From Candidatus Kuenenia stuttgartensis (lineage in GTDB: Bacteria; Planctomycetota; Brocadiia; Brocadiales; Brocadiaceae): a DNA stretch of 32,000 bases. A program made the translations under genes and the position numbers. Position 1 is the first letter of the stretch, and every line of letters starts with the position of its first letter. The notes under the pieces were generated by a model. It had not been told where the DNA came from and searched no databases. It saw nothing but the letters and a program-made list of their open reading frames with translations. Positions 488 through 32,000 of this stretch are shown piece by piece. Where the stretch lies: contig NZ_LT934425.1 of assembly GCF_900232105.1 (NCBI RefSeq), positions 2,010,001 through 2,042,000 on the forward strand. Direction: 5' to 3'.

Positions 488-1920
488 ACGAAGCGGAACA
501 CCCCTATTCAAAGATAAAAGCCATTATCAAGCAGGGCAAAGGGTTGACCGTTGAGTTCAAGGAGTGTAATACCGCCCTCAACAAAGATATTTACGAGACG
601 GTGTGCGCCTTCCTGAACCGCTTCGGCGGCGAGCTTCTGCTTGGCGTTAGAGATGACGGCGTGATAACCGGTATAGTCCCTGAGTGCCTCCACCAGATCA
701 AAAATGATTTTACGACAGCCGTCAATAATCCACAGAAAATCAGCCCGTCGTTTTATCTCTCAATGGATGAGGCCGTAATCGACGGGAAAACCATTCTCTC
801 CATTTACATCCCCGAAAGCTCCCAGGTTCACCGCTGTAACGGGAAAATATACGACCGGAATGAAGACGGTGATTTCAATATCACGGACAACCACAACCTT
901 GTATCCGCACTTTACCTGCGAAAGCAGATCGGCTACTCAGAAAACACTATTTACCCATATACTGAACTTGCCGATCTGCGGCCTGATGTTATAGCAAGAG
1001 TTCGAAAAATGGCTTTGCTCCAGTCGGAAAACCACCCATGGGGCGCTATGAGTGACCTTGACCTTTTGAGAAGCGTTCAGTTGTATAGGAAGGATTTTCA
1101 AACCGGGAAAGACGGTTTTACGCTTGCCGCAATACTGCTCTTTGGAAAAGACGAGACCATTCTATCGGTAGTGCCGCATTTCAGAATCGATGCCATTCTG
1201 AGACGGGACAACATCGACCGTTATGACGACCGTGACGATATCCGCACGAATCTCATCGAAAGTTATGACCGCCTGCTACGATTTGGAGAGAAACATCTGA
1301 ACGATCCGTTTTATCTGGAAAATGGCCAGAGGATAAGCCTGCGCGGCCATATTTTACGGGAAGTAATCAGCAATATCCTTATCCACCGCGAGTATGCCAA
1401 TGCGTTTCCAGCGAAGTTCGTCATTGATAGAGAAAAACTTTTCACGGAGAACAGCAATAAACCTCACGGGTATGGCATGATTGATCCGTCACATTTTACG
1501 CCCTATCCAAAAAATCCTTCTATTGCGCGATTATTCAGGGAAATTGGACGGGCGGATGAGCTTGGGTCTGGTGTTAGGAATCTGTTTAAGTATTGCAAGG
1601 CCTATTGCGGCCACGATCCGCAACTCATAGAACAGGATATTTTCAAATTCATCCTGCCGCTTACCGGGGAAGCTACCCCTCAAGCTACCCCCCAAGCTAC
1701 AGGGGAAGACGAACGGACAAAAAAAATAATGAATTACTGTCTTAACCCAAGAACAAGAGAGGAAATACAGGAGTTTACCGGTTACAAAGACAGAAAACAT
1801 TTTCGTTTAGAAATCTTACAGCCGCTTCTTGATAAGGGCTTGCTGCACCCGACTATACCCGATAAACTGACAAGCCCGAAACAGAAGTATTACTCTGCAA
1901 AGAAACGAGAGAACCTATGA
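484..1920 (+). CDS. AlbA_2 (Schlafen-like) + HATPase_c_4 putative DNA-binding regulator (family often auto-annotated as RecG-like ATP-dependent DNA helicase)
   Basis: N-terminal LTVEFKE...FLNRFGGELLLGVRDDGVITGI fits the AlbA_2 pattern. C-terminal HREYANAFP...NPSIARLFREIGRADELGSGVRNL fits the HATPase_c_4 pattern. ATG 484 is preferred over the tracked 460 because of the ATGA coupling to fic. The stop is again in an ATGA overlap (1917-1920). Confidence 0.75.
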   Translation: MNEAEHPYSKIKAIIKQGKGLTVEFKECNTALNKDIYETVCAFLNRFGGELLLGVRDDGVITGIVPECLHQIKNDFTTAVNNPQKISPSFYLSMDEAVIDGKTILSIYIPESSQVHRCNGKIYDRNEDGDFNITDNHNLVSALYLRKQIGYSENTIYPYTELADLRPDVIARVRKMALLQSENHPWGAMSDLDLLRSVQLYRKDFQTGKDGFTLAAILLFGKDETILSVVPHFRIDAILRRDNIDRYDDRDDIRTNLIESYDRLLRFGEKHLNDPFYLENGQRISLRGHILREVISNILIHREYANAFPAKFVIDREKLFTENSNKPHGYGMIDPSHFTPYPKNPSIARLFREIGRADELGSGVRNLFKYCKAYCGHDPQLIEQDIFKFILPLTGEATPQATPQATGEDERTKKIMNYCLNPRTREEIQEFTGYKDRKHFRLEILQPLLDKGLLHPTIPDKLTSPKQKYYSAKKRENL

Positions 1921-3930
1921 ACGAAGCGGAAACCAGAGCGGAACTGATTGACCCGAAGCTCAAAGAAAGCGGCCGGGGCGTGGTGGACGGGTCAAAAATA
2001 TTGCGTGAATACAATATCACTGCCGGCAAAATCCAGACCGGCGGCGGGCGTGCCAAGCCGTTGATTGCCGATTATGTGCTGGTGTATCAGGGGCGCAAAC
2101 TGGCCGTTGTCGAAGCCAAGAGCGATGAGTTTGTCGTGGGCAAAGGGTGGCGCAGGCCAAGAACTACGCCGAAAAGTTAAAATTGGATACTACCTTTGCC
2201 AGCAACGGTAAAGAGATTTATCAAATCTGCATGAAAACCGGCGGAGAAGGTTTGGTTGCTGGTTTTCCCGCACCGGATGAACTCTGGAATAAAACCTTCG
2301 CCACGCAAAATCGGTGGCGGGACAAGTTTAATCAGGTGCCGTTTGAGGATGTGGGCGGCACGAAGAGTGTGCGCTACTACCAGGAAATCGCGGTCAACAA
2401 TACCATGGCCGCTATTGCCGAAGATAAACAGCGTATTTTGCTCACCATGGCGACAGGTACCGGAAAAACCTTTATTGTCTTTCAGATTGCGTGGAAGCTG
2501 TTTCAGACTCGCTGGAACTTAAAGCGCGACGGTTCGCGCAGGCCGCGGATTTTGTTTTTGGCTGATAGAAATATTTTGGCGGATCAGGCGTTTAACGCAT
2601 TTTCCGTTTTCCCTGAAGATGCGTTGGTGCGGATTAACCCTAAAGAAATCAGCAAAAAAGGCGGTGTGCCCACCAACGGCAGCATTTTCTTTACCATCTT
2701 CCAGACCTTCATGAGCGGGGGTTCGACAGGCTCAGGGCAGGCTCCTTCGGCAGGCTCACCACATCGACCTGTCGAAGGGTGTTTTGGCGAATATCCTCCA
2801 AACTATTTTGATTTCATTATCATCGACGAGTGCCATCGCGGCGGGGCGAACAACGAAGGCAACTGGCGCGGCATCATGGAATACTTTTCTCCTGCGGTTC
2901 AGCTTGGTTTAGCCGCAACGCCCAAACGCGAAGATAATGCGGATACCTACAAATATTTCGGAGAGCCGGTGTATATCTATTCGCTCAAAGAGGGCATCAA
3001 CGACGGCTTTCTGACGCTGTTCAAGGTAAAGCGGATCAAGACCACGCTGGACGATTATATTTATACCTCGGATGATCAGATTATTGAAGGTGAAATAGAA
3101 GAAGGCAAAATTTACACAGAACCAGACTTTAATAAGATTATCGAGATTAAAGAGCACGAAGCCAGGTGGGTGCAAATATTTCTCTCGGAAATCAATCAGA
3201 ACGAAAAGGCTATTGTTTTCTGCGCTACCCAGGACCATGCGCTGGCAGTGCGCGATTTGGTCAATCAATTCAAAAAGAGCAAGGAACCAAATTACTGCGC
3301 CCGTGTTACCGCCAATGATGGCGCGATGGGTAAACAGTATTTGCGCGAGTTTCAGGATAATGAAAAGACTATCCCGACTATTCTGACTACCTCGCAAAAG
3401 CTATCTACCGGTGTGGATGCCTGTAATATCCGCAATATTATCCTCATGCGTCCGGTCGATTCTATGATCGAGTTTAAGCAGATTGTGGGGCGCGGCACAC
3501 GGCTATTTGATGGGAAAGAGTTTTTCACAATCTATGATTTTGTCGATGCCTACCATCATTTTGCCGACCCTGAATGGGATGGCGAGCCTGTTGTTGATGA
3601 TTCCTGCCCTAAGTGCGGCTACAGTCCGTGTACCTGTGTAAAAAAACCGCAGGGACATTGTCCGGAATGTGGTGAACGGCCTTGTATCTGTATAAAAGAA
3701 CCGACCGAACCCTGTTCTGTTTGTGGAAATGCCCCATGCATCTGTAACAGGAAACAAAAGGTAAAAATCAAACTGCGCGATGGTAAGGAGCGCGAAATTC
3801 AGCATATGATAGCCACTTCATTTTGGAGCGCCGAGGGAAGGCCGATCTCTGCAGAAGAGTTTTTACAGAATATGTTTGGAAAGCTGCCGGTTTCAAAGAG
3901 GTCAATTGTTCCGAACTATTACGTATATTT
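1917..3930 (+). pseudogene. hsdR: Type I restriction enzyme R subunit (HsdR, EcoEI-like), disrupted by a frameshift and a 3' truncation
   Basis: N-terminus MNEAETRAELIDPKL; helicase motifs MATGTGKT, DECHRG, LGLAATP, QIVGRGTR. The tracked ORFs 1917-2180 and 2147-4150 are one gene split at G-run 2145-2147; adding one G reads ...VGKGVAQAKNYAEKL. HsdR-like sequence ends near 3890-3930, right at the argC stop. The tracked ORF tail to 4150 is antisense to argC. The usual C-terminal EcoEI_R_C-type domain is absent. Confidence 0.8.
2721..2778. repeat. Small palindromic repeat-like insertion inside hsdR, read in frame as STGSGQAPSAGSPHRPVEG
   Basis: Perfect 9-bp terminal inverted repeat ttcgacagg (2722-2730) / cctgtcgaa (2768-2776). 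Three internal direct copies of caggctc (2727, 2738, 2751). It lies in the variable loop just upstream of the DECH box. Confidence 0.4.
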
Positions 3931-3933
3931 TAT

Positions 3934-4965
3934 CTATTTCAATCCAGTTTCTTCTTTAAATCCGCACATTACATTCATATTTTGTACTGCCTGGCCTGCG
4001 GCGCCCTTGATTAAATTATCGATGGCAGAAAGAATCACTATCCTTTTTTCTGTTACCTTTACCGCAATATCGCAGAAGTTTGTGTGGCTTACGTCTTTTG
4101 TTTTCGGCAGGGTGTTGTTTTCTTTTAAGCGGATAAAGGGTTCTTTTTGATAAAATTCCCTATAGATATTCAATGCTGCCTCATCGTTCAGAGCTGAAGC
4201 GCCTGTCCTTATTTTGGGGTTGCAGTAAATAGTGCATAATATGCCTCTGTTCATGGGGATGAGGTGGGGAACAAACTGGATGGATACGGATTTGCCGGTT
4301 TGGGTGGATAGTATATGTTCTATTTCAGGACTGTGGCGATGGCCGCCCACAGCGTATGCCTCGGTATTTTCGTTGCATTCGCAGTAGTGTGTGTCTTCCC
4401 GTGCTTCTCGTCCTTTCCCGGAAACGCCCGACTTTGCATCCACAATGATATCATCGGGTTCTATAAGACCTTTCGCAAGCAATGGCGCTAATGCCAGTAT
4501 GGTTGCGGTAGTGTAGCATCCAGGATTTGCCGTTAATTGAGTATTTTTAATTTTATCGCGAAAAAGCTCCGGCAGGCCGTAGACGGCTTTTGTTATGCCG
4601 GTGCTATCGGTATGCCGGGCCTTATACCATTTTTCATACAACGCGCTATCCTGAAACCGGTAATCAGCACTGAAGTCTATTGCCTTTATTCCTTTCTGAA
4701 TAAAATGCGGCACATATTTCATTGAAATCGTGGGCGGCAGGGTAATAAAGGCAACATCCAGGTTATCAGGGACTTCTTTTTCCTGAATACTATTGCAAGG
4801 CAATTCGATTTGACCTTGCAATGAAGGAAATATATCGGAAATTTTAGGACGGTCTGTTCTCCTCACACCGAGAAAGGAAATTTTCACTTCCGGATGGCGA
4901 AGAAGGATTTTGATGAGTTCAAGGCTGGTGTAAGCAGTAGCACCAATAATTCCAATGTTTAACAT
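3934..4965 (-). CDS. argC: N-acetyl-gamma-glutamyl-phosphate reductase
   Basis: MLNIGIIGATAYTSLELIKIL NAD-binding N-terminus and catalytic-Cys motif NPGCYTTA. ATG at 4965 is preceded by GGGAGA; the tracked TTG at 4983 was rejected. Confidence 0.92.
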   Translation of the reverse strand: MLNIGIIGATAYTSLELIKILLRHPEVKISFLGVRRTDRPKISDIFPSLQGQIELPCNSIQEKEVPDNLDVAFITLPPTISMKYVPHFIQKGIKAIDFSADYRFQDSALYEKWYKARHTDSTGITKAVYGLPELFRDKIKNTQLTANPGCYTTATILALAPLLAKGLIEPDDIIVDAKSGVSGKGREAREDTHYCECNENTEAYAVGGHRHSPEIEHILSTQTGKSVSIQFVPHLIPMNRGILCTIYCNPKIRTGASALNDEAALNIYREFYQKEPFIRLKENNTLPKTKDVSHTNFCDIAVKVTEKRIVILSAIDNLIKGAAGQAVQNMNVMCGFKEETGLK

Positions 4966-5139: not shown

Positions 5140-7557
5140 TTATCCTTTTTTTGGCTCTTCTGCGCCGAAAACAATTGGCAGCATTTCATCTACCCTTTCT
5201 ACAAATGCGAAATTCAATCTTTTTTTTGCATTTTCAGGAACTTCGGTTAAATCTTTCTCATTTCTCTTCGGTAAGACAACCGTTGTAATCCCTGCCCTCT
5301 TGGCTGCCAGTACCTTTTCTTTTATGCCTCCAACGGGTAGAACCCTTCCGCGCAGCGTGATTTCGCCCGTCATTGCCACATTAGAGAGGATTGGCGTCCC
5401 TTTCAAAAGTGAGATAAGCGCCATAGCCATTGTTACTCCGGCAGAAGGTCCGTCTTTTGGAATAGCTCCCGCAGGAACATGAATGTGAAAGTCGTATTTA
5501 TCAAAATCCTTAAATGAAATCTTCAGGCTTTCGAGTTTTGACCTGATATAGCTCATTGCTGCCTGGGCAGATTCTTTCATAATATCCCCTAAACATCCGG
5601 TCAGGGTGAGTTTCCCAGTGCCTGGCATAAAAGTCGCCTCAATAAAAAGTATGTCTCCGCCGGCCTGCGTCCACGCGAGACCGGTGGCAACTCCGGCGTC
5701 AGTGGTTCGTTCCGCCGCCTCAGAGAAAAACTTGATTGGCCCTAGAAGCGTATTTAATTGTTCCGCATTTATGGTTACCGACGTCTCTTCTCCGGAAGCG
5801 ATTTTCTTCGCCGTTTTCCTGCAAAGGTGTGCGATTTCACGCTCCAGGTTTCTCAATCCTGCCTCCCGTGTGTAATCAGTGATTACCATCTTTATTGCAT
5901 CGTCTGTAATCGTTAGCTGCTCCTCCTTGAGGCCGTGGGCTTTTAGCTGCTTGGGAAGGATGAATTTTTTCACGATGGATATTTTTTCTTCCGCAGTATA
6001 TCCTGAAAGTTCCAACACCTCCATACGATCTTTCAGTGCAGGCGGTACCGTATCTAATATGTTTGCGGTGGTGATAAACATTACATTTGAAAGGTCAAAC
6101 GCTACGTCGAGATAATGGTCGGAAAAGGCATGGTTTTGTTCAGGGTCAAGCACTTCCAGCAAGGCGGCTGAGGGGTCTCCGCGGAAATCAGCGCCAAGTT
6201 TGTCAATTTCGTCCAGCATGAATACCGGATTGTTTGATTCCGCCTTTTTCAGTCCCTGTATGATCCTGCCCGGCAATGCACCGATATATGTGCGCCTGTG
6301 ACCCCTTATCTCCGCCTCGTCTCTTACTCCGCCCAGGGACATACGGACAAATTTCCTGCCCATCGAACGTGCAATTGACATCCCAACAGAGGTTTTCCCT
6401 GTGCCGGGCGGTCCGACAAAGCACAAGATCGGCCCCTTCATATCATCCTTGAGTTTCCTTACCGCAAGATATTCAAGGATCCGTTCCTTTAATTTTTCTA
6501 AATCGTAGTGATCTTCATCCAATATTGTGCTTGCCGTTTTAATATCCAGTTGGTCTTTTGTAGAAACCGACCATGGAAGGGCAATCAACAGATCCAGGTA
6601 TGTCCTTGAAACCGTATATTCCGCCGAAGCAGAATGCATTTTTGCAAGCCGTTCAAGCTCTCGTTCGGCCTCTTTTTTTGCTTCGGCAGGCATTTTGGCA
6701 TTTTCGATTTTTTCCTTTAATTCTTTTATCTCCATTGAACGTTCGTCGCCTTCGCCCAGTTCATCCTGAATCGCCTTTAGCTGCTGCCTCAGATAATATT
6801 CCTTCTGTCCCTTTTCCATTTCGTTCCTTACCTGAGACTGGATTTTTGTAGCCATTTCCAGGACTTCCAATTCGCTGGCAATCAGTGTAGTAACTTTTTG
6901 CAAACGCAATTTTACGTTTGCCAGTTCAAGCACCTTTTGTTTTTCCGCCACGCTAACATTTAAATGCGAAGTAATAAGATCCGCTAAACGGCTGGGATTT
7001 TCAATATTAACGACAGCTATCTTCAATTCTTCGGGCAGTGATGGCATCATGGAGATCATGTGCGCAAATTGGTCCGCCGCATTTCTTGCCAGTGCCTCTG
7101 TCTCTCTATCGTCTTCAATGATATCTTCGATAGCGCTGATTTTTGCTTTAAAATAAGGATCGGATTGAACGTATTCCCCGATTTTTACCCTGCGAAGTCC
7201 CTGGACAAGCATTTTTGCAGAATTATCGGGCATGCGCAGCATTTGAAGAACGACAGCCGCCGTGGCGCACTCATAGATATCGGATTGTTTTAGCACTTTA
7301 ATATCTTTATCTTTCTGCGCGGTCAGGGTCAGGAATCGGTTCCCGGCTAAAACATCGTTCAGGAGTTTAATATCCCTATCGGTATAAACGCTTAACGCCG
7401 CGACCATTCCCGGGAATACAACGGTGTCTTTCACTGGAAGCACAGGGGTTTCATGTGGTATTTTTATTCTTTCTATTTTGTCCTGTACTTCTTCTTCAAC
7501 CGTAAGTACAGGATGCTCCTGGTCTTCGCCATGGTTATTATTTTCGCTATTTGTCAT
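5140..7557 (-). CDS. lon: ATP-dependent Lon protease (La)
   Basis: 805 aa. Lon N-terminal domain, Walker A GPPGTGKTS, catalytic-serine motif PKDGPSAGV. Confidence 0.97.
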   Translation of the reverse strand: MTNSENNNHGEDQEHPVLTVEEEVQDKIERIKIPHETPVLPVKDTVVFPGMVAALSVYTDRDIKLLNDVLAGNRFLTLTAQKDKDIKVLKQSDIYECATAAVVLQMLRMPDNSAKMLVQGLRRVKIGEYVQSDPYFKAKISAIEDIIEDDRETEALARNAADQFAHMISMMPSLPEELKIAVVNIENPSRLADLITSHLNVSVAEKQKVLELANVKLRLQKVTTLIASELEVLEMATKIQSQVRNEMEKGQKEYYLRQQLKAIQDELGEGDERSMEIKELKEKIENAKMPAEAKKEAERELERLAKMHSASAEYTVSRTYLDLLIALPWSVSTKDQLDIKTASTILDEDHYDLEKLKERILEYLAVRKLKDDMKGPILCFVGPPGTGKTSVGMSIARSMGRKFVRMSLGGVRDEAEIRGHRRTYIGALPGRIIQGLKKAESNNPVFMLDEIDKLGADFRGDPSAALLEVLDPEQNHAFSDHYLDVAFDLSNVMFITTANILDTVPPALKDRMEVLELSGYTAEEKISIVKKFILPKQLKAHGLKEEQLTITDDAIKMVITDYTREAGLRNLEREIAHLCRKTAKKIASGEETSVTINAEQLNTLLGPIKFFSEAAERTTDAGVATGLAWTQAGGDILFIEATFMPGTGKLTLTGCLGDIMKESAQAAMSYIRSKLESLKISFKDFDKYDFHIHVPAGAIPKDGPSAGVTMAMALISLLKGTPILSNVAMTGEITLRGRVLPVGGIKEKVLAAKRAGITTVVLPKRNEKDLTEVPENAKKRLNFAFVERVDEMLPIVFGAEEPKKG

Positions 7558-18132: not shown

Positions 18133-18162
18133 GTAGAGGCGAAGCATCTGCTATAAACGGTT
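18133..18162. repeat. Truncated half-copy of the family A palindromic element
   Basis: gtagaggcgaagcatctgctataaacgg aligns with the left arm plus loop start of the 22255 copy (taggggcgaagtatttgctataactgg). No matching right arm follows. Confidence 0.5.
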
Positions 18163-22254: not shown

Positions 22255-22323
22255 TAGGGGCGAAGTATTTGCTATAACTGGTATAATGCGTTCATGCCCA
22301 AACACGCAAATGCTTCGCCCCTA
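22255..22323. repeat. Family A palindromic element, loop inverted relative to copies 13035 and 27607
   Basis: Arms taggggcgaagtatttgc / gcaaatgcttcgccccta (one T-G mismatch). The loop contains gcgttcatgcccaaacac, the reverse complement of gtgtttgggcatgaacgc. Confidence 0.85.
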
Positions 22324-25525: not shown

Positions 25526-25602
25526 AATAACAACTAACGAAAATAGCCGTAAAGGAACCGGAATATCTGTTTTCAGACTAAACGATAGGAAAGTATGTGT
25601 TT

Positions 25603-27570
25603 ATGTATGATTTTGAATTAATCTCCCCCTTCGAACCCGAAGGCGACCAGCCGGAGGCAATCCGCAAACTGGTGGAAAATTACAGGAAAAACGTCACATT
25701 TCAAACATTGCTTGGTGTTACAGGATCGGGCAAGACATTTACTATGGCAAATGTCATTGCTGCATTAGGAAAACCGACACTGGTTATGACTCACAATAAA
25801 ACCCTTGCAGCGCAGCTTTACAGCGAATTTAAAGATTTTTTCCCTAAGAATGCGGTGGGGTACTTCGTGAGTTATTACGATTATTATCAACCCGAGGCAT
25901 ATATTCCGCAGCGTGATATTTATATTGAAAAAGAGGCAACGATTAACCAGGAAATTGACCGGTTACGATTGGCGGCGACCAGTGTCCTTATGTCGCGCAA
26001 AGACGTAATTATTGTCGCAAGCGTTTCCTGTATATATGGTCTTGGATCCCCGGCAGAATATCAGGAAATGTATCTGCATCTCAGCAAGGGCGATGAAGTA
26101 GAACGGGACACTGTTTTGAAAAAACTTATCAGTATTCAATACGAACGGAATGACAGCCATTTTAGACGCGGAACATTCCGGGTACGGGGGGATGTTATCG
26201 AAGTGTTTCCCGCCTACGAAGAGTTTGCGTACCGGGTGGAATTGTTCGGGGATGAGGTGGATAAGATTTCCATGATAGACCCTTTAACTGGCAATACATT
26301 GCAAAAAATAAAAGAGGTTTCTGTTTATCCTGCAAAGCATTTTGTCATGCCGGAAGAGAAAATAGAACGTGTTGTCCAATCAATTACCGCTGAATTAAAT
26401 GACCGCCTTAAGGACCTTCGTTCCCGTGATAAGTTGTTGGAGGCGCAGCGTCTGGAAGCGCGGACGCGGTATGATATTGAAATGCTTCTGGAAATAGGGT
26501 ATTGCCATGGCATTGAAAATTATTCAAGGCACATAAGCGGACGAGCGCCGGGAGAGCCGCCTTATACGCTGTTTGATTATTTCCCGAAAGATTTTTTCCT
26601 CATCGTTGACGAGTCCCATGTTTCAACGCCTCAAATTGCCGGCATGTATCATGGGGACAGGGCGCGTAAAGAAACGCTGGTTGAATATGGCTTCCGGTTG
26701 CCATCCGCCCTTGATAACCGTCCGCTGAGGTTTGATGAGTGGGAATCAAGGATTAAGCAGATACTTTTTGTTTCAGCAACCCCCGGCCCTTACGAACTGA
26801 AAAAATCTCAAAACAATATCGTGGAACAGATTATTCGCCCTACCGGCCTTGTGGATCCGATAATTTACGTAAAACCTGCAAAAACACAGGTCAATGATTT
26901 GATAACGGAAATTAAAAAAAGAACTTTGAGAAAAGAACGGACGCTTGTCACCACATTGACAAAACGGCTGGCGGAGGACTTAAGCGGGTATTTAAAGGAA
27001 GAGGGGATTAAGTGTATGTATCTGCACTCCGAGATTAATGCCATAGAAAGAGTCACTATTCTCAGGGAGTTGAGAATGGGGACGTTTGATGTATTAATTG
27101 GCGTCAATTTGTTACGGGAAGGATTAGACTTACCCGAGGTTTCTTTGGTGGCTATTCTTGATGCGGACAAGGAAGGTTTTCTCCGTTCGGAAACCTCCCT
27201 TATACAAACCATTGGCAGGACAGCCCGGAATGTCAACGCTGAGGTGATATTGTATGGGGATGAAATAACAAAATCCATGCGGCGGGCAATTGACGAAACC
27301 AACCGGCGCCGGGCAATTCAAAGCGCATATAATAAGGAACATAACATTACTCCCGCTACAATACAAAAGGAAATCAAAAAGGGGATAGAGTCCGATATTT
27401 CTTCGCATAAGATAGTCTATGAAGCCGTTGCGGAAAGCGAAGAAGAATACATTACCCAGGAGTACCTTAACGAATTGGAAGCCGAAATGCTGAAAGCCGC
27501 CGAGGAATTGGCGTTTGAGAGGGCGGCGGAATTAAGAGACAAGATACAACAGCTTAAAAAAAGTGTGTAG
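25603..27570 (+). CDS. uvrB: Excinuclease ABC subunit B
   Basis: [11 protein letters not shown], Walker [14 protein letters not shown] box (VDESHVS). C-terminal UVR domain [23 protein letters not shown] 25597 is an alternative start. Confidence 0.97.
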
Positions 27571-27606
27571 TAAAGATCAAACGGCATTTTATCGTAATTT
27601 GATAAC

Positions 27607-27678
27607 GTAGGGGCAAAGCATTTGCCGGTTTAGGCATGAGCGCATGTCTGCCGGTTATCGCAAATGCTTCGCCCCTAC
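27607..27678. repeat. Family A palindromic element between convergent uvrB and the DprA-like gene (possible bidirectional terminator structure)
   Basis: Arms gtaggggcaaagcatttgc / gcaaatgcttcgcccctac, 18/19 paired. The loop contains gtttaggcatgagcgcat. Confidence 0.85.
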
Positions 27679-27747
27679 ATTTTGTTTCCAGACGTAAGCC
27701 AGTGGCTTTAGTCTGATTGAGTATATATGCTTTAAAATCCCAATCTC

Positions 27748-28335
27748 TTATCCAGTTTTAAAGGATGAAATTGTTTTCCCTGTGCGTGAAATGTCCGTAA
27801 TGATCTTTTCAATATTTCCACACGGTAAGGCATAGGCGATAAATATTTCATCCGCCAGTTCTGCCATTAAGTGGTTCCTCTGGTTGGCCGTTTCTCTGGT
27901 AACTCGTTTAACCTTTTCATCAAATGGTGTAGCGATCAACAGTCTGTTTTTATCCAGGGCATCCTTTAATTCGGGCTCTAGTCTCTTTTTAAGACCTCTT
28001 GCCAGTGCAAGGATGATGGGCTGTGCGCCTTTGAGCAGGTAATGCAACACATCTTTCTCTATTTTGGAATGAAAACCTGATATGACACAAACGCCTTTTT
28101 CCCTTTGTGCAATTGCCCAGTCATACGATTTGAGGATGATATCAGCCGGGCATTTGCGGGAACATAAGAAGGCGATTTTGTGGTCTTTAAGTATCTGCTT
28201 ATTCCCCATATAATTTATATTGTTTTGTGATAGGGGCGAAGCATTTTCCATGACAATGCCCGGAAGCGGTTTAATGGGCAAGGAAAATGCTTTGCCCCTA
28301 CAGGCATCGTTTTGATTATTATTTGTTGTCGCCAT
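27748..28335 (-). CDS. DprA-like (Smf/DprA-LOG, SLOG-type Rossmann) protein, short form
   Basis: IAFLCSRKCP...VISGFHSKIEKDVLHYLL...IILALARGL...QRNHLMAELADEIFIA parallels the DprA Rossmann-domain pattern (GSR..., SGxAxGID..H, RNRxIA). ATG 28335 has GGGGA 7 nt upstream, but codons 11-35 are encoded by a family A repeat. Alternative start at ATG 28209. Confidence 0.6.
   Translation of the reverse strand: MATTNNNQNDACRGKAFSLPIKPLPGIVMENASPLSQNNINYMGNKQILKDHKIAFLCSRKCPADIILKSYDWAIAQREKGVCVISGFHSKIEKDVLHYLLKGAQPIILALARGLKKRLEPELKDALDKNRLLIATPFDEKVKRVTRETANQRNHLMAELADEIFIAYALPCGNIEKIITDISRTGKTISSFKTG
28231..28300. repeat. Family A palindromic element (divergent copy) inside the 5' part of the DprA-like ORF
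   Basis: Arms taggggcgaagcattttcc / ggaaaatgctttgccccta, 18/19 paired. Confidence 0.8.
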
Positions 28336-28458: not shown

Positions 28459-28809
28459 TTAATCGGGATAGGCAATTCTTTTTGCTGATTTGGCAAGCAC
28501 TCGCGATATCTTTTTAGTAATTTCGCCCTTTATCAAGGCGTGGGCATAGTTGGCGGGTTGCGGGTCATGCACACATTCTAGCCCCAATTCTCTTGGTTGT
28601 TGTGCTTTTAGATAATACAACCTAAATCTGTGTATATCTTGAATACTATCCTCGTAGGAGGTTAATCTTTCAACGTTTACAGAAAGGCCATACTCTCCTT
28701 TTTTTAATTGAAATGCACATGAGGTAAGCGTGCCATCATCCCTTACATAATTAGGATCAATAAAGGGAACTCTTCTCAGCAGATTATCATTATCCAGTAT
28801 GGCTTCCAT
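28459..28809 (-). CDS. Hypothetical 116-aa protein (third gene of the coupled triad; possible toxin/effector)
   Basis: Start in a TAATG overlap with the upstream gene. Features LLRRVPF...GLSVNVE...NYAHALIKG. I can name no family. Confidence 0.6.
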   Translation of the reverse strand: MEAILDNDNLLRRVPFIDPNYVRDDGTLTSCAFQLKKGEYGLSVNVERLTSYEDSIQDIHRFRLYYLKAQQPRELGLECVHDPQPANYAHALIKGEITKKISRVLAKSAKRIAYPD

Positions 28810-29282
28810 TAAAACAGTTCAAGTATTTGAGGCAATAAATGATCAAGCGCACCCTCTGAAATACAGGCATCGCCCTCATAAATCAAAACCTCATTTGAAT
28901 TATCGGCATTGAAATATACTTCAGCCTCGTAATTTCCTTTTCTAAGCTCTACCACAATTTCCCCATTAGGTCCTGGAGCAACAAAGTAAACCGGAATTCC
29001 ATGCGCATCAATGACTCTTATAAATGATAATGCATTAACAATGGCGCTTTCTGAAGGTTTTTCAGCTCCATAACTATCCCAATTATCTGCAAAATTTCTA
29101 AAACCTAAAATTTTTGAGGTAGCCTTCATGGCTGCATTACTTAATGAAGGCGTTTGTGGATAAATGTCTATAACAATGCTCGTATTCCATTCCTGTTGTT
29201 CGGTTTCGAATGCTTCTGAAAGATAAATAGAAGAGCTTGCGCAACGTTTTCTATATGGAGACGCTTCTTGTAAAGCTGTCAT
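28809..29282 (-). CDS. Hypothetical 157-aa protein with NWDSYGA motif (second gene of the coupled triad)
   Basis: ATG 29282 is preceded by AAGGGGGAAG. It overlaps the end of the upstream gene by 32 nt. I can name no family. Confidence 0.6.
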   Translation of the reverse strand: MTALQEASPYRKRCASSSIYLSEAFETEQQEWNTSIVIDIYPQTPSLSNAAMKATSKILGFRNFADNWDSYGAEKPSESAIVNALSFIRVIDAHGIPVYFVAPGPNGEIVVELRKGNYEAEVYFNADNSNEVLIYEGDACISEGALDHLLPQILELF

Positions 29283-30042
29283 AAAACTTCCCCCTTGTCA
29301 TTTCTTTAAATAACGGTGAAATAATCTCGTGTGCATGTGTGCACCATTTCGTCATTTCATTTCTAGTAAACCTGCCTTTTTTGACAATTGCTGTTTGCCA
29401 AACCAGTGTGGGATCATGGGTTTTTTTATCACTGCCTGTTGTTACGTTAATGTGCAAAGCAGACCCATCTTTTAACCCGAATGTTTGATTCAGGTTCAGA
29501 CCTTCCATCGGACCGAGTGTGTCAAAATGGTTATGCAGTTCTATTTTCAGTGAATCATGTATAAAGGGTAATAAATTATCTTTGACGGTTACTTGATAAT
29601 CTTTCAATTTTACAGCATCAATGTAGCGTAGGCTGCAAAAATTCAGGTTTATTTTTTGATTATATGCCTCAAATAGCTTATTGGTAGATTCTAAAATCAG
29701 TGGGAAAAAGGTATCCTTCCAACAATACTTTTTGTCGGTATCATTTACTGTAAAAATCCCGGGACCCAATTGCAGTACGGGCCAAATATCTTCACCTTTC
29801 CAAAACTGATAGATAACGGAATAGTTTAGTAAATCTGTTGGAAAATCATCGGGAATTTTACGTACTATGTGAGGAAAATCATTTTTTAGCAAGGTGGCCA
29901 ATGTTCCTAAAGCAATAGCAAAACCCTCATCAAATTCCCGATTGCTGTCCGGATTTATATTTAAATCCCAGCGAATTTCAAATATCACTTCTTGTAAGGG
30001 TGCGTTAGGGAGTTTTTCGATATGTTCGTTATTCGATATCAT
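29251..30042 (-). CDS. TIGR04255-like uncharacterised protein (263 aa)
   Basis: N-terminus ...KLPNAPLQEVIFEIRWDL resembles the signature I associate with the function-unknown TIGR04255 family, and the length (about 260 aa) fits. The assignment is from memory and was not searched. Confidence 0.6.
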   Translation of the reverse strand: MISNNEHIEKLPNAPLQEVIFEIRWDLNINPDSNREFDEGFAIALGTLATLLKNDFPHIVRKIPDDFPTDLLNYSVIYQFWKGEDIWPVLQLGPGIFTVNDTDKKYCWKDTFFPLILESTNKLFEAYNQKINLNFCSLRYIDAVKLKDYQVTVKDNLLPFIHDSLKIELHNHFDTLGPMEGLNLNQTFGLKDGSALHINVTTGSDKKTHDPTLVWQTAIVKKGRFTRNEMTKWCTHAHEIISPLFKEMTRGKFYDSFTRSVSI

Positions 30043-30072
30043 ATTTTATTAATAATACGATTTATTTGTTAA

Positions 30073-30096
30073 TATAGGAATAGGGCTATTCCTATA
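30073..30096. promoter_or_regulatory. Perfect 10-bp-stem palindrome 31 nt upstream of the triad start codon (candidate operator or 5' hairpin)
   Basis: tataggaata-gggc-tattcctata inside a 340-bp AT-rich gap. Confidence 0.3.
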
Positions 30097-30234
30097 GATT
30101 TATTGATCTTATACATTGTTTAACCTGAAATCAAGGATTGAGTATTGAAGAGAAATTAAAAAAAACACAAAAGCAAAAATCAATTATTACGAAAAATTTG
30201 ATGGAATATTCCAATGAAATAAAACTTATTCTTT

Positions 30235-30258
30235 GTCTTCGTCTTCGTCTTCGTCTTC
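30235..30258. repeat. Tandem hexamer (gtcttc) x 4
   Basis: Read directly from the sequence. The minus strand would encode EDEDEDED inside a 15-codon ORF. Confidence 0.9.
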
Positions 30259-30381
30259 AAGTTCTTTGCCCATGCGGTATTAATATCATAGTTGATACCT
30301 TGTCCTGAGCCAAGCCGAAGGAATGAAGTCTAATTCCTCATCGGTGAAACCGTAGTGGCGAGCTAAACCGCAAACAAGCTG

Positions 30382-30570
30382 TTATTTAATGGAATGCGCC
30401 AATTCAATTTTAGAAAATGCTTTCATTAACATTCCTTCTATGTTTACAATGAACAATCCCATGGCAAAAGAAGTCCGTTGGGCTTTGGCACAAGTTTTTT
30501 GCAACGTGTTATCTGCCGGTGCAAACACATTTTCTAATAGAAGGACAAATTTATAATCTTCCGACCACAT
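30382..30570 (-). CDS. Hypothetical 62-aa ORF
   Basis: ORF only. Weak ribosome-binding site, no recognisable family; could be a gene remnant. Confidence 0.25.
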   Translation of the reverse strand: MWSEDYKFVLLLENVFAPADNTLQKTCAKAQRTSFAMGLFIVNIEGMLMKAFSKIELAHSIK

Positions 30571-30578
30571 ATCGTCTT

Positions 30579-30809
30579 CTAGTTTTCCCTCCTAAAATTA
30601 TCCTCAATCTCATTTAGTCTTTCCCGGCACTGATTTATCATGTGTAAAACACATTTAGTACAGTAGAAAGAATCCTTGTACATACCATCTTTGACCTTAA
30701 GAACGAGTTGACCCTTCTGGATAGAATGGGCATCATCGTGATAGCATTTTCGCTTTCTGCCAGCGACATCAACCGAATGAGTCTTAAGCATGCTTTTGTA
30801 TTTTGCCAT
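30579..30809 (-). CDS. Hypothetical 76-aa basic Cys/His-containing protein, coupled to the helicase
   Basis: ATG 30809 lies 1 nt after the helicase TGA (30813-30811) and is preceded by GGAAGGT. Contains RKRKCYHDDAH...FYCTKC (possible zinc site). The tracked start 30944 was rejected because it overlaps the helicase. Confidence 0.5.
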   Translation of the reverse strand: MAKYKSMLKTHSVDVAGRKRKCYHDDAHSIQKGQLVLKVKDGMYKDSFYCTKCVLHMINQCRERLNEIEDNFRREN

Positions 30810-30810
30810 T

Positions 30811-32000
30811 TCAGTTACCTTCCATTTTTTTTCTAATTTCAGACACCAGTTTATCAATAATTTCATCCATGTTGTCATGAGCATTTTTGAGTTGGTTTTC
30901 CGTGAGTAAATCTCGTTCCCGTGAGCAAACATGCAAGTATTCAAGGACTGCTCTATTAATTAAAATTATTGCCGCCGGAAGATTAGCAGATGCAGTTGTT
31001 GATGGAAAATGCTTTGGGAGGTCTAATCCACCAATCTTCAACTGAAGTTCATTTAATAGTTGCTTTGCTGCAGAACGTACTCTCTCATCAAGACGCCGCC
31101 TTGCTGCCTTTCTCGCTTCTTGTGGGGACACCTGAAGTTTACTGAGAGTTCCTCTTTTTTGTGCTTGTAAGTATGATTGCATGAGCTTAGTCTCTAATTC
31201 CTCACGAGACAAACCAAAAACTTCAAAATCAATCCCTCGCATTTGCATTGTCTGAATTAAGTCCTCGACAGCTATTCTGGTGTCTTCTGGTACAAAATGA
31301 TCCTGAACAAAATGTACGATGGCCTCTTCAATTACCTCCATTTCAGGTCTGAAGCGTTTGCGACTTGGAGCAGGGTCTTTTTCACTGCTTTTATGAAGAA
31401 TGAACTCATGCTTACCAAATGCAAGTTCTGCAAAGAATGCCTCATCATCTTGGTCAAATTCCTTTAACTCATTCCACCACCGGTCAACATTGAGGCCAAC
31501 ATGAGAAACAACAAAACCACGATTAGCTGGATGACCAGGAGCGTTTTGTTTAATAACACGCATTACACGACCCACGAATTGAACGTATGGCATCAAATGC
31601 CTGTAAGGCCTGAATATCGCAGCTACGCTTAAGTTTGGATAATCTGCACCTTCACCAAGCATTTGGACTTGTACTATTGCATCAATACTTTTTGTTTGTA
31701 GCTTATTTCTAACCTTATATTGTTCTTCTTCTGGCAGATTACTGTGTATAATTTCTGTTCGAATGTTCCTCTCGGTGTATAAAGCCCTAATTGAATTTGC
31801 ATGGTCAATTGAGCATGCAACGGCTATTATTTGGTGCACTTCCCCACTTTCTTTCAATTCTTGCAGGCTTTGGATGGAAGCATCAACAATGCTTTCGTTA
31901 CATTCACGAGACAGTGCTACGCCTTTACTAAACCAATCTTTTTCCCGTAACATCAGGACGTCGTTTAGCCCAACTTTTCGGTTCTCGCCTTTGTAGGTAA
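30811..32000 (-). CDS. SF2 helicase (ResIII/DEAD-like family), C-terminal portion; N-terminus lies right of the window
   Basis: Frame open to the window edge (...TYKGENRKVGLNDVLMLREK...). Helicase C-terminal motifs QMLGEGADYP (V) and QFVGRVMR (VI). About 230-aa helical C-terminal extension of unknown function. Confidence 0.85.
   Translation of the reverse strand, partial: TYKGENRKVGLNDVLMLREKDWFSKGVALSRECNESIVDASIQSLQELKESGEVHQIIAVACSIDHANSIRALYTERNIRTEIIHSNLPEEEQYKVRNKLQTKSIDAIVQVQMLGEGADYPNLSVAAIFRPYRHLMPYVQFVGRVMRVIKQNAPGHPANRGFVVSHVGLNVDRWWNELKEFDQDDEAFFAELAFGKHEFILHKSSEKDPAPSRKRFRPEMEVIEEAIVHFVQDHFVPEDTRIAVEDLIQTMQMRGIDFEVFGLSREELETKLMQSYLQAQKRGTLSKLQVSPQEARKAARRRLDERVRSAAKQLLNELQLKIGGLDLPKHFPSTTASANLPAAIILINRAVLEYLHVCSRERDLLTENQLKNAHDNMDEIIDKLVSEIRKKMEGN

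Follow-up and report, generated by a model that had tools for sequence, protein, structure and literature searches.

What do three tightly packed genes, lying between a set of helicase and methyltransferase sequences and uvrB in Candidatus Kuenenia stuttgartensis, do together? The genes, here called A, B and C, sit on the minus strand of a stretch of 32,000 nucleotides (nt) from contig NZ_LT934425.1 (positions 2,010,001 to 2,042,000), which we call the window and whose numbering is used throughout. A preliminary description of this DNA had proposed that they form a translationally coupled cassette of the toxin-antitoxin or sensor-effector kind. We find that A is a member of the TIGR04255 family, that all related loci examined share the gene order and the A/B overlap, and that B and C form an invariant core to which different first proteins are attached. 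Our preferred, still tentative reading is that A-B-C is a mobile conflict module, acting in phage defence or abortive infection or in a toxin-antitoxin-like manner, with C as effector, B as its holder and A as receiver of the trigger. We give it a probability of about 0.4.

Layout and conservation of the three genes

The coding features of the cassette are listed below; lengths of proteins are in amino acids (aa), and ORF stands for open reading frame.

29251-30042, minus strand: gene A, TIGR04255 family protein, 263 aa (ORF list and TIGR04255 profile); proposed sensor or partner
28809-29282, minus strand: gene B, 157 aa, with a disordered part (residues 1-42) and a globular NWDSYGA domain (45-157) (ORF and structure model); proposed partner or neutraliser of C
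28459-28809, minus strand: gene C, 116 aa, a compact alpha/beta protein (ORF and model); proposed enzymatic effector
29251-29282, minus strand: dual-coded A/B overlap of 32 nt (read from the sequence)
29287-29296, minus strand: Shine-Dalgarno-like AAGGGGGAAG within gene A, 4 nt before the ATG of B (read from the sequence)
28807-28811, minus strand: TAATG stop/start overlap of B and C (read from the sequence)

The three reading frames, the start of B at ATG 29282 behind its AAGGGGGAAG site, 32 nt inside A, and the start of C in the TAATG overlap are all as they had first been described.

Against the NCBIfam profile TIGR04255, A scores 105.5 bits (expectation value, E, 3.8e-30), its residues 10-257 covering positions 1-251 of the 252 in the profile. 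The curated cut-off is 30 bits. A is clearly a full-length member, and the earlier assignment of the first protein holds, the score lying far above the threshold and not below it. In the family alignment (A3), 26 columns are invariant, and many of these hold polar or aromatic residues. A matched no Pfam or PADLOC family, and a PHROGs search gave no match for A, B or C; no internal duplication was detected in A, and a sequence search of the PDB with its profile returned nothing significant. A full-text literature search for TIGR04255 found no paper that mentions it. One subfamily of this named family, which lacks a known function, is now placed in a fixed three-gene unit. The two smaller proteins, for which no family could be named at the outset, match none in Pfam or NCBIfam.

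The unit was surveyed from both ends. Starting from the C family and taking one genome per species, we obtained 40 loci from Brocadiales, many Bacteroidota orders, Ignavibacteriota, Kryptoniota, Balneolaceae and the gammaproteobacterium Wenzhouxiangella. In about 37 of these 40, C is immediately preceded by homologues of A and then B, with order and strand unchanged; the exceptions are contig ends or damaged genes. In the reverse survey, 80 metagenome loci were collected with A alone and scored for B where at least 450 nt follow A, and for C where at least 850 nt follow. B was present in 72 of 72 such loci and C in 66 of 66. Neighbours of TIGR04255 genes found in this way are thus always the expected ones, in agreement with the proposal of an obligate, co-translated unit. 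The flanks of the cassette differ between loci and are often housekeeping genes; A, B and C therefore seem to travel together as a horizontally mobile unit. As for the closest relatives, A of the window is 94% identical to a protein of Candidatus Brocadia pituitae and B is 99% identical to one from a Candidatus Kuenenia stuttgartiensis genome bin.

The junction of A and B is conserved in a particular way. In the window, the ATG of B is built from a conserved tyrosine codon of A and the codon after it (TAT GAC read as ATG AC). The start of B is dual-coded within a conserved C-terminal motif of A in all 39 loci compared: the motif [F/L/Y]-[Y/H]-x-[S]-[F/L] of A, shifted by one base, reads M-x-A-L of B in each of them. 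The overlaps are 17, 20, 23, 26 or 32 nt long, always a multiple of three plus two. Junctions of B and C in other loci are also tight, mostly between -26 and +12 nt. The tight packing of A-B-C is not due to chance, since all related loci examined have this gene order and A/B overlap in common; given this overlap and the tight B/C junction, selection appears to act on the order of the genes and on the coupling of their translation. A programmed +1 frameshift at TTT-T, which would fuse A to B, was considered and dropped, since the phenylalanine at this place is leucine, tyrosine or methionine in many loci.

The B-C pair and its relatives

A tblastn search of plasmids with C identified three Hymenobacter plasmids in which a DUF4209 protein of 620 aa is followed by a B-like and then a C-like gene, with no TIGR04255 protein at the first position; the same kind of search with A and B found nothing in plasmids. 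The C-like proteins of these triads match their profile with E of 3e-21 to 1e-9, and the B-like ones with E of 2e-16 to 1e-7. The triads adjoin HipA, MmeI, or BrxA and BrxE genes. As a member of the HEPN superfamily, DUF4209 is a predicted active RNase, noted in restriction-modification operons (PMC3710099).

A second link leads to PDC-M32, a two-gene candidate of a set proposed for its embedding in BREX, DISARM or type I restriction-modification loci (Payne et al., bioRxiv 10.1101/2024.01.29.577857). C of the window matches the PADLOC profile PDC-M32B with E 5.6e-6 over positions 4-104 of 123, and 17 of 23 members of its family do so too (best E 4.4e-8). For B the match is to the C-terminal region of PDC-M32A (positions 260-335 of 375), found in 11 of 12 family members with a best E of 2.5e-5 and in B of the window with E 0.035 only. 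Both systems are also linked to restriction-modification and BREX-type loci. They differ in that the cassette has three genes rather than two (PDC-M32A and PDC-M32B) and contains no adjacent full-length protein of the PDC-M32A type (about 375 aa). Judged by these profile matches, the cassette is a distant three-gene relative of PDC-M32 and not a member of it.

Across these variants, B and C make up the invariant core, and the first protein is exchangeable: TIGR04255, HEPN/DUF4209, or the fused N-terminal domain in PDC-M32A. The preliminary description had overlooked this core, of which TIGR04255 is not part, as well as the restriction-modification island, the methyltransferase remnant and the optional fourth gene D described below. 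In the literature searched, PDC-M32 was seen only as a PADLOC hit in a prophage survey. The TIGR04255-B-C cassette, its dual-coded overlap, the B-C core with swappable partners and the phage homologues of B appear not to have been described there.

In the structure model of B, residues 1-42 are disordered, and residues 45-157 form a confident domain of two helices, five strands and one helix. Comparison of the model with the PDB by Foldseek gave no meaningful match, and PDB sequence searches with the B profile and a broader B alignment gave nothing significant. The family is large, with 1971 clusters at 50% identity (E up to 0.001), and B resembles many small uncharacterised phage proteins in BFVD. 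On viral contigs from IMG/VR (L050-L058), the invariant NWDSYGA motif is retained in proteins of 77-118 aa that stand alone (for example L051:725-964 and L050:6040-6276); no C-like gene was found near them on these contigs, and tblastn of C against phage genomes found nothing. Such phage proteins could be triggers or inhibitors of systems like this one.

Two further observations concern relatives of A and B. On a viral or prophage contig (L049:4616-6417), a divergent pair is formed by an A-like gene (333 aa, E 2e-10) and, after a 4-nt overlap, a B-like gene (267 aa); C was not detected after the pair, and the next ORF, of 218 aa, has no known family. Among the representatives of the B family, P0197 (508 aa) carries the B domain at its C-terminus (residues 400-507), and its first ~370 residues resemble, by reading of the sequence only, the specificity subunit HsdS of type I restriction systems. 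Either the fusion is genuine, or the gene call has read through in a copy embedded in restriction-modification genes.

C is modelled with high confidence (predicted local distance difference test score 94.5) as alternating strands and helices. Residues R13, G41, S43, V44, L49, N87, A89, H90 and I93 are invariant, including in the versions linked to DUF4209, and the polar ones among them (R13, S43, N87 and H90; alignments A1 and A5) are kept in the most divergent members; this set looks like an active site, and its four residues are candidates for catalysis. Pfam searches of all C-family members gave chance-level matches only, and PDB sequence searches with the C profile and a broader alignment gave nothing significant. 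In the Foldseek comparison with the PDB, the only recurring matches, all weak, are the NAD-dependent tRNA 2'-phosphotransferases Tpt1/KptA of several organisms and, lower, DarT, together about 20 of the top 50. C may thus have an ADP-ribosyltransferase-like fold, which we treat as a lead from the model and not as a result. DarTG and Tpt1/KptA, to which these matches point, have the ADP-ribosyltransferase fold and use NAD to modify DNA or RNA; for its part, C is small and enzyme-like, and it adjoins a potentially neutralising protein. On the other side, C has 116 aa and those enzymes 180-210, the cassette has no macrodomain antitoxin, and C shows no evident H-H-hydrophobic or catalytic Glu motif.

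Proposed mechanism and assignment of roles

The preliminary description had cast the 116-aa protein as effector and the 157-aa protein as neutraliser or adaptor, and natural mutants agree with this assignment, if anecdotally. C is frameshifted or truncated in four loci (L008, L009, L024 and L041) in which A and B are intact. In L016, A is deleted, its first 11 residues (MSRLPNAPLQE) being fused in frame to the NWDSYGA domain of B (5648-5974), and in L036 it is broken; C is intact in both. No locus has an intact C without the globular domain of B. C is the gene most often broken, and the pattern would fit a costly effector C, a keeper in the domain of B, and an A that is dispensable for restraining C.

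We propose the following mechanism. C would be a small enzyme built around the invariant R13, S43, N87 and H90, perhaps an NAD-using enzyme of the ADP-ribosyltransferase fold that acts on nucleic acids as Tpt1/KptA or DarT do, and it would serve as a growth-arresting effector. The globular NWDSYGA domain of B would bind C and keep it inactive, the disordered N-terminal tail of B connecting it to A. Translational coupling would hold the three proteins in a fixed proportion. A would take the trigger, either an infection cue or the loss of a neighbouring restriction-modification function, upon which C would be released. Where present, D may be a nucleotide-binding accessory. Nucleotide-binding proteins of the SLOG type, which D resembles, would suit NAD or ADP-ribose chemistry.

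The toxin-antitoxin or sensor-effector interpretation first given to the locus survives in part. It fits the restriction-modification neighbours, the PDC-M32 matches and the HEPN/DUF4209 variants; the type II layout of two genes with a DNA-binding antitoxin does not apply, the cassette having three obligate genes and no HTH, RHH or AbrB domain. Whatever the exact role, a B family of ~2000 clusters and the C family are now tied to restriction-modification islands and to a defence candidate. Should the module protect against phages, it would count as a new system, marked by an unusual dual coding of overlapping genes that is deeply conserved, and might bring a new minimal enzyme family with it; if not, it would be one more mobile toxin-antitoxin-like cassette.

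Several results weigh against our reading. The matches of C to Tpt1/KptA and DarT are weak (E 0.2-0.6, probability 0.4-0.8, template-modelling score 0.40-0.56), no ADP-ribosyltransferase family was detected in C by Pfam or PDB profile searches, and its R-S-N/H pattern is not a canonical motif of these enzymes (H-H-hydrophobic, H-Y-E or R-S-E). PDC-M32 is itself a computational candidate only and lends no mechanism; the match of B to PDC-M32A spans just about 75 of its 375 positions, and neither A nor 36 members of its family match that profile, whose first 250 positions stay unmatched. Many loci sit between housekeeping genes. The counts of mutants are small and come from draft metagenome genomes. 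Finally, the first protein of the DUF4209 variants is itself a predicted nuclease, and by analogy A, not C, could be the effector.

This last point leads to the reversed assignment, in which the first protein (TIGR04255 or HEPN/DUF4209) is toxic, C is a modifying enzyme that silences it and B is an adaptor. Such a system would resemble the MNT nucleotidyltransferases that neutralise HEPN toxins. The pairing of B and C with a predicted active HEPN RNase family in the three plasmids speaks for it, and so do the size and conservation of A, the largest and most conserved of the three proteins with its many invariant polar and aromatic residues, and the start codon of B, which is tied to A and not to C. 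The natural mutants point the other way: if C were the antidote, its loss from four loci with apparently intact A and B should be lethal or strongly counterselected, and B and C are kept in L016 and L036, where A is lost or broken. Moreover, no nuclease or other toxin family was detected in A. We consider reversed roles unlikely, though likelier than the other rival explanations.

The cassette can also be compared with known systems. With HEPN-MNT toxin-antitoxin pairs and abortive modules embedded in restriction-modification loci, such as PrrC, there are two parallels, the HEPN/DUF4209 first gene of the variant triads and the frequent position of the cassette beside restriction-modification genes. 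Unlike in HEPN-MNT, the first gene in the window is TIGR04255 and not HEPN, and C is not a detectable nucleotidyltransferase; unlike PrrC, the cassette has no anticodon-nuclease domain. CmdTAC, a tripartite system of toxin, antitoxin and chaperone, is similar in its three co-transcribed small or medium-sized genes, in a possible ADP-ribosyltransferase-like effector and in a middle protein with a disordered extension, here B. It differs in gene order and in that the disordered segment of B is N-terminal, and no SecB-like or other chaperone family was detected in A, B or C.

Genomic setting and further explanations

The surroundings of the cassette in the window comprise these features.

30811-32000, minus strand: helicase, in frame to the end of the window, the C-terminal part of a 728-aa gene
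30579-30809, minus strand: 76-aa cysteine-rich gene (CYHDD...YCTKC, possibly a zinc ribbon), conserved in same-species contigs
30382-30570, minus strand: 62-aa gene, conserved in same-species contigs
30226-30357, minus strand: frameshifted C-terminal remnant of an Eco57I/MmeI-type methyltransferase (HYGFTDEELDFI...INYDIKYRMGKE-like, with an acidic tail), from DNA alignment with relatives
30073-30096, no strand: perfect palindrome with arms of 11 bp (TATAGGAATAG / CTATTCCTATA) and a spacer of 2 nt, 30 nt upstream of the ATG of A
30043-30072, minus strand: sigma-70-like match (TTAACA, 18 nt, TAAAAT), 10 of 12 matches in a consensus scan
28231-28300, no strand: palindromic element between C and D, similar to repetitive extragenic palindromic (REP) sequences, not at this place in L006, L007 and L024
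27748-28209, minus strand: gene D, DprA/SLOG-like (PsyrA-like), the optional fourth gene, probable start ATG 28209 (153 aa)

Up to uvrB (25597-27570) the window is housekeeping DNA, with Lon, GroEL, ABC transport, an MscS-type channel, a TonB receptor and a GGDEF-EAL protein; the island begins after uvrB. Its full extent is seen in contigs of the same species with an identical B (L060/L061, 1-8478). Read in the direction of the cassette, it holds a PLD-SNF2 helicase (1115 aa), an MmeI/Eco57I-type methyltransferase (about 1140 aa), a 186-aa gene, a ResIII/SNF2 helicase (728 aa), the small genes of 76 and 62 aa, A, B, C and the DprA-like gene, followed by the convergent uvrB. The genes upstream of the cassette look like a restriction-modification or DISARM-like island. 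A truncated gene, as the listed 380-aa helicase ORF might suggest, was ruled out by the 728-aa version in these contigs. The 76-aa and 62-aa genes match no family and were not found in the other loci. Neither a noncoding RNA, as in type III toxin-antitoxin systems, nor a link of the island to a tRNA is indicated, Rfam and tRNA scans being empty.

To describe the neighbourhood more widely, we collected, for 44 loci, the closest ORF of 200 aa or more on either side, 74 proteins in all. The commonest Pfam families among them are Eco57I (6), ResIII (5), N6_Mtase (4), DEAD (4), HsdM_N (3), Helicase_C (3), Methylase_S (2) and MmeI_Mtase (2). The neighbours are enriched for restriction-modification and helicase genes, an enrichment which is qualitative though large, being read from raw counts. 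As for the same-strand gene immediately before the cassette, L022 and L028 have an Eco57I-type methyltransferase, L035 has an N6_N4 methyltransferase, L037 HsdS, L014 an SNF2 helicase and L032 a HerA-like ATPase; PFOR, DnaE and EngA occupy this place in three other loci.

These neighbours bear on the idea of a plain selfish addiction module, which would stabilise islands and plasmids and have no anti-phage role. Small co-translated genes in a patchy, mobile distribution are what such a module would look like, as are its occurrence on plasmids and beside a HipA toxin-antitoxin pair and the many decayed copies. It is at odds with the lack of a DNA-binding antitoxin domain and with three obligate genes in place of two; the cassette also consistently adjoins methyltransferases, specificity subunits and helicases, and its only database relatives are candidates defined by their embedding in defence systems. 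We hold this explanation to be improbable.

About equally improbable, in our estimate, is that the cassette is an accessory of restriction-modification or DNA modification, either a guard that fires when the neighbouring methyltransferase or restriction enzyme is inhibited or one component, beside the methyltransferase and the SLOG protein, of a pathway that modifies nucleic acids. PrrC with EcoprrI is a precedent for a guard. A methyltransferase or HsdS stands directly upstream, on the same strand, in five loci (L022, L028, L035, L036 and L037). The methyltransferase immediately before A-B-C-D is of the Eco57I type and intact in L022 and frameshifted in L036; in the window, L006, L007 and L009 only its degraded C-terminal remnant is kept. 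In the window the remnant has an extra segment of ~23 nt, ccttcggcttggctcaggacaag, which also occurs in L006 and L007 and is absent from L009. The order methyltransferase-A-B-C-D is thus found in Flavobacteriales and Ignavibacteria and reduced to a remnant in Brocadiaceae, from which we infer that a five-gene form spread between phyla and then decayed in Brocadiaceae. P0197, which joins its HsdS-like N-terminal region to a B domain, would also suit an accessory. Against this, a restriction-modification gene is missing near many cassettes, which lie between housekeeping genes such as enolase, DnaE, EngA and PFOR, and where such genes do adjoin, their types differ (type I, IIG and III-like), which argues against one specific partner.

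A bolder version of the conflict module, which we think has only a slim chance of being right, makes B and C a universal plug-in pair of small enzyme and keeper. NWDSYGA would then be a domesticated phage protein, and infection would be sensed when a phage NWDSYGA protein displaces B and frees C; alternatively, the phage copies would be anti-defence decoys that keep C bound. If this were true, C would represent a new minimal NAD-dependent family modifying nucleic acids, and TIGR04255 would gain its first function. Least probable is an ordinary metabolic or stress-related operon that happens to be transferred horizontally, for, although no domain of a toxin, nuclease or defence protein reached significance in A, B or C and some loci lie inside housekeeping regions, the cassette is sporadic across phyla, has variable flanks, decays frequently, stands in a neighbourhood dominated by restriction-modification genes and has homologues of B in phages.

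Gene D matches the Pfam family DNA_processg_A (E 3.7e-7) and the PADLOC profile PsyrA (E 1.4e-12). Its mechanically called ORF extends to 28335 (195 aa), inflated by the REP-like element. D stands directly after C in L006, L007 and L024, where it starts 3 nt past the stop of C, and also in L022 (Flavobacteriales), L036 (Ignavibacteria) and the metagenome loci L066 and L108. In the window it recalls PsyrTA/RqlHI, in which a helicase toxin is paired with a DprA-like antitoxin, the helicase 1.5 kb upstream being weakly PsyrT-like (E 6e-4). It differs in that D covers only positions 122-248 of the 398 in the PsyrA profile and in that the two genes are not adjacent, five others lying between them. 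That they represent a PsyrTA system split by the cassette was rejected, as the helicase is absent from relatives in which D still follows C.

The REP-like element consists of inverted pairs of TAGGGGCRAAGCATTT and recurs between genes at 27604-27681 and 22255-22323, with a half copy at 18134-18149; the window has 7 matches, with 0.06 expected by chance. The cassette adjoins uvrB in different ways among relatives: in L009 and L024, from Brocadia relatives, it lies upstream of uvrB and is co-directional, whereas in the window it lies downstream and is convergent. REP-like elements are found at the junctions.

The palindrome upstream of A, which had been suggested as an autoregulatory operator, is real, with slightly corrected dimensions: its arms measure 11 bp and not 10, and its distance from the ATG is 30 nt and not 31. 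It is unique in the window, and none of 100 shuffled sequences matched it, even with 3 mismatches allowed. No DNA-binding domain (HTH, RHH or AbrB) was detected in A, B, C or D with Pfam and NCBIfam, and the proposed operator is therefore without a candidate binder; by its symmetry the palindrome could still be one. Between it and the ATG of A lies the sigma-70-like match, whose -10 element abuts the start codon, such a match not being evidence of function. Brocadiaceae loci share a conserved stretch of 150 nt before A. Only in the window is the dyad perfect; the relatives show one or two changes that are uncompensated and one that is compensated (TATA...TATA to TATT...AATA).

A last observation concerns Brocadia sp. 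WS118 (L009), where a SIR2_2-domain protein (696-1619) and a 949-aa protein (1616-4465) precede the cassette. The latter has no Pfam match and, by BLASTP, no similarity to the methyltransferase of which it had been considered a homologue. The two may be another defence pair.

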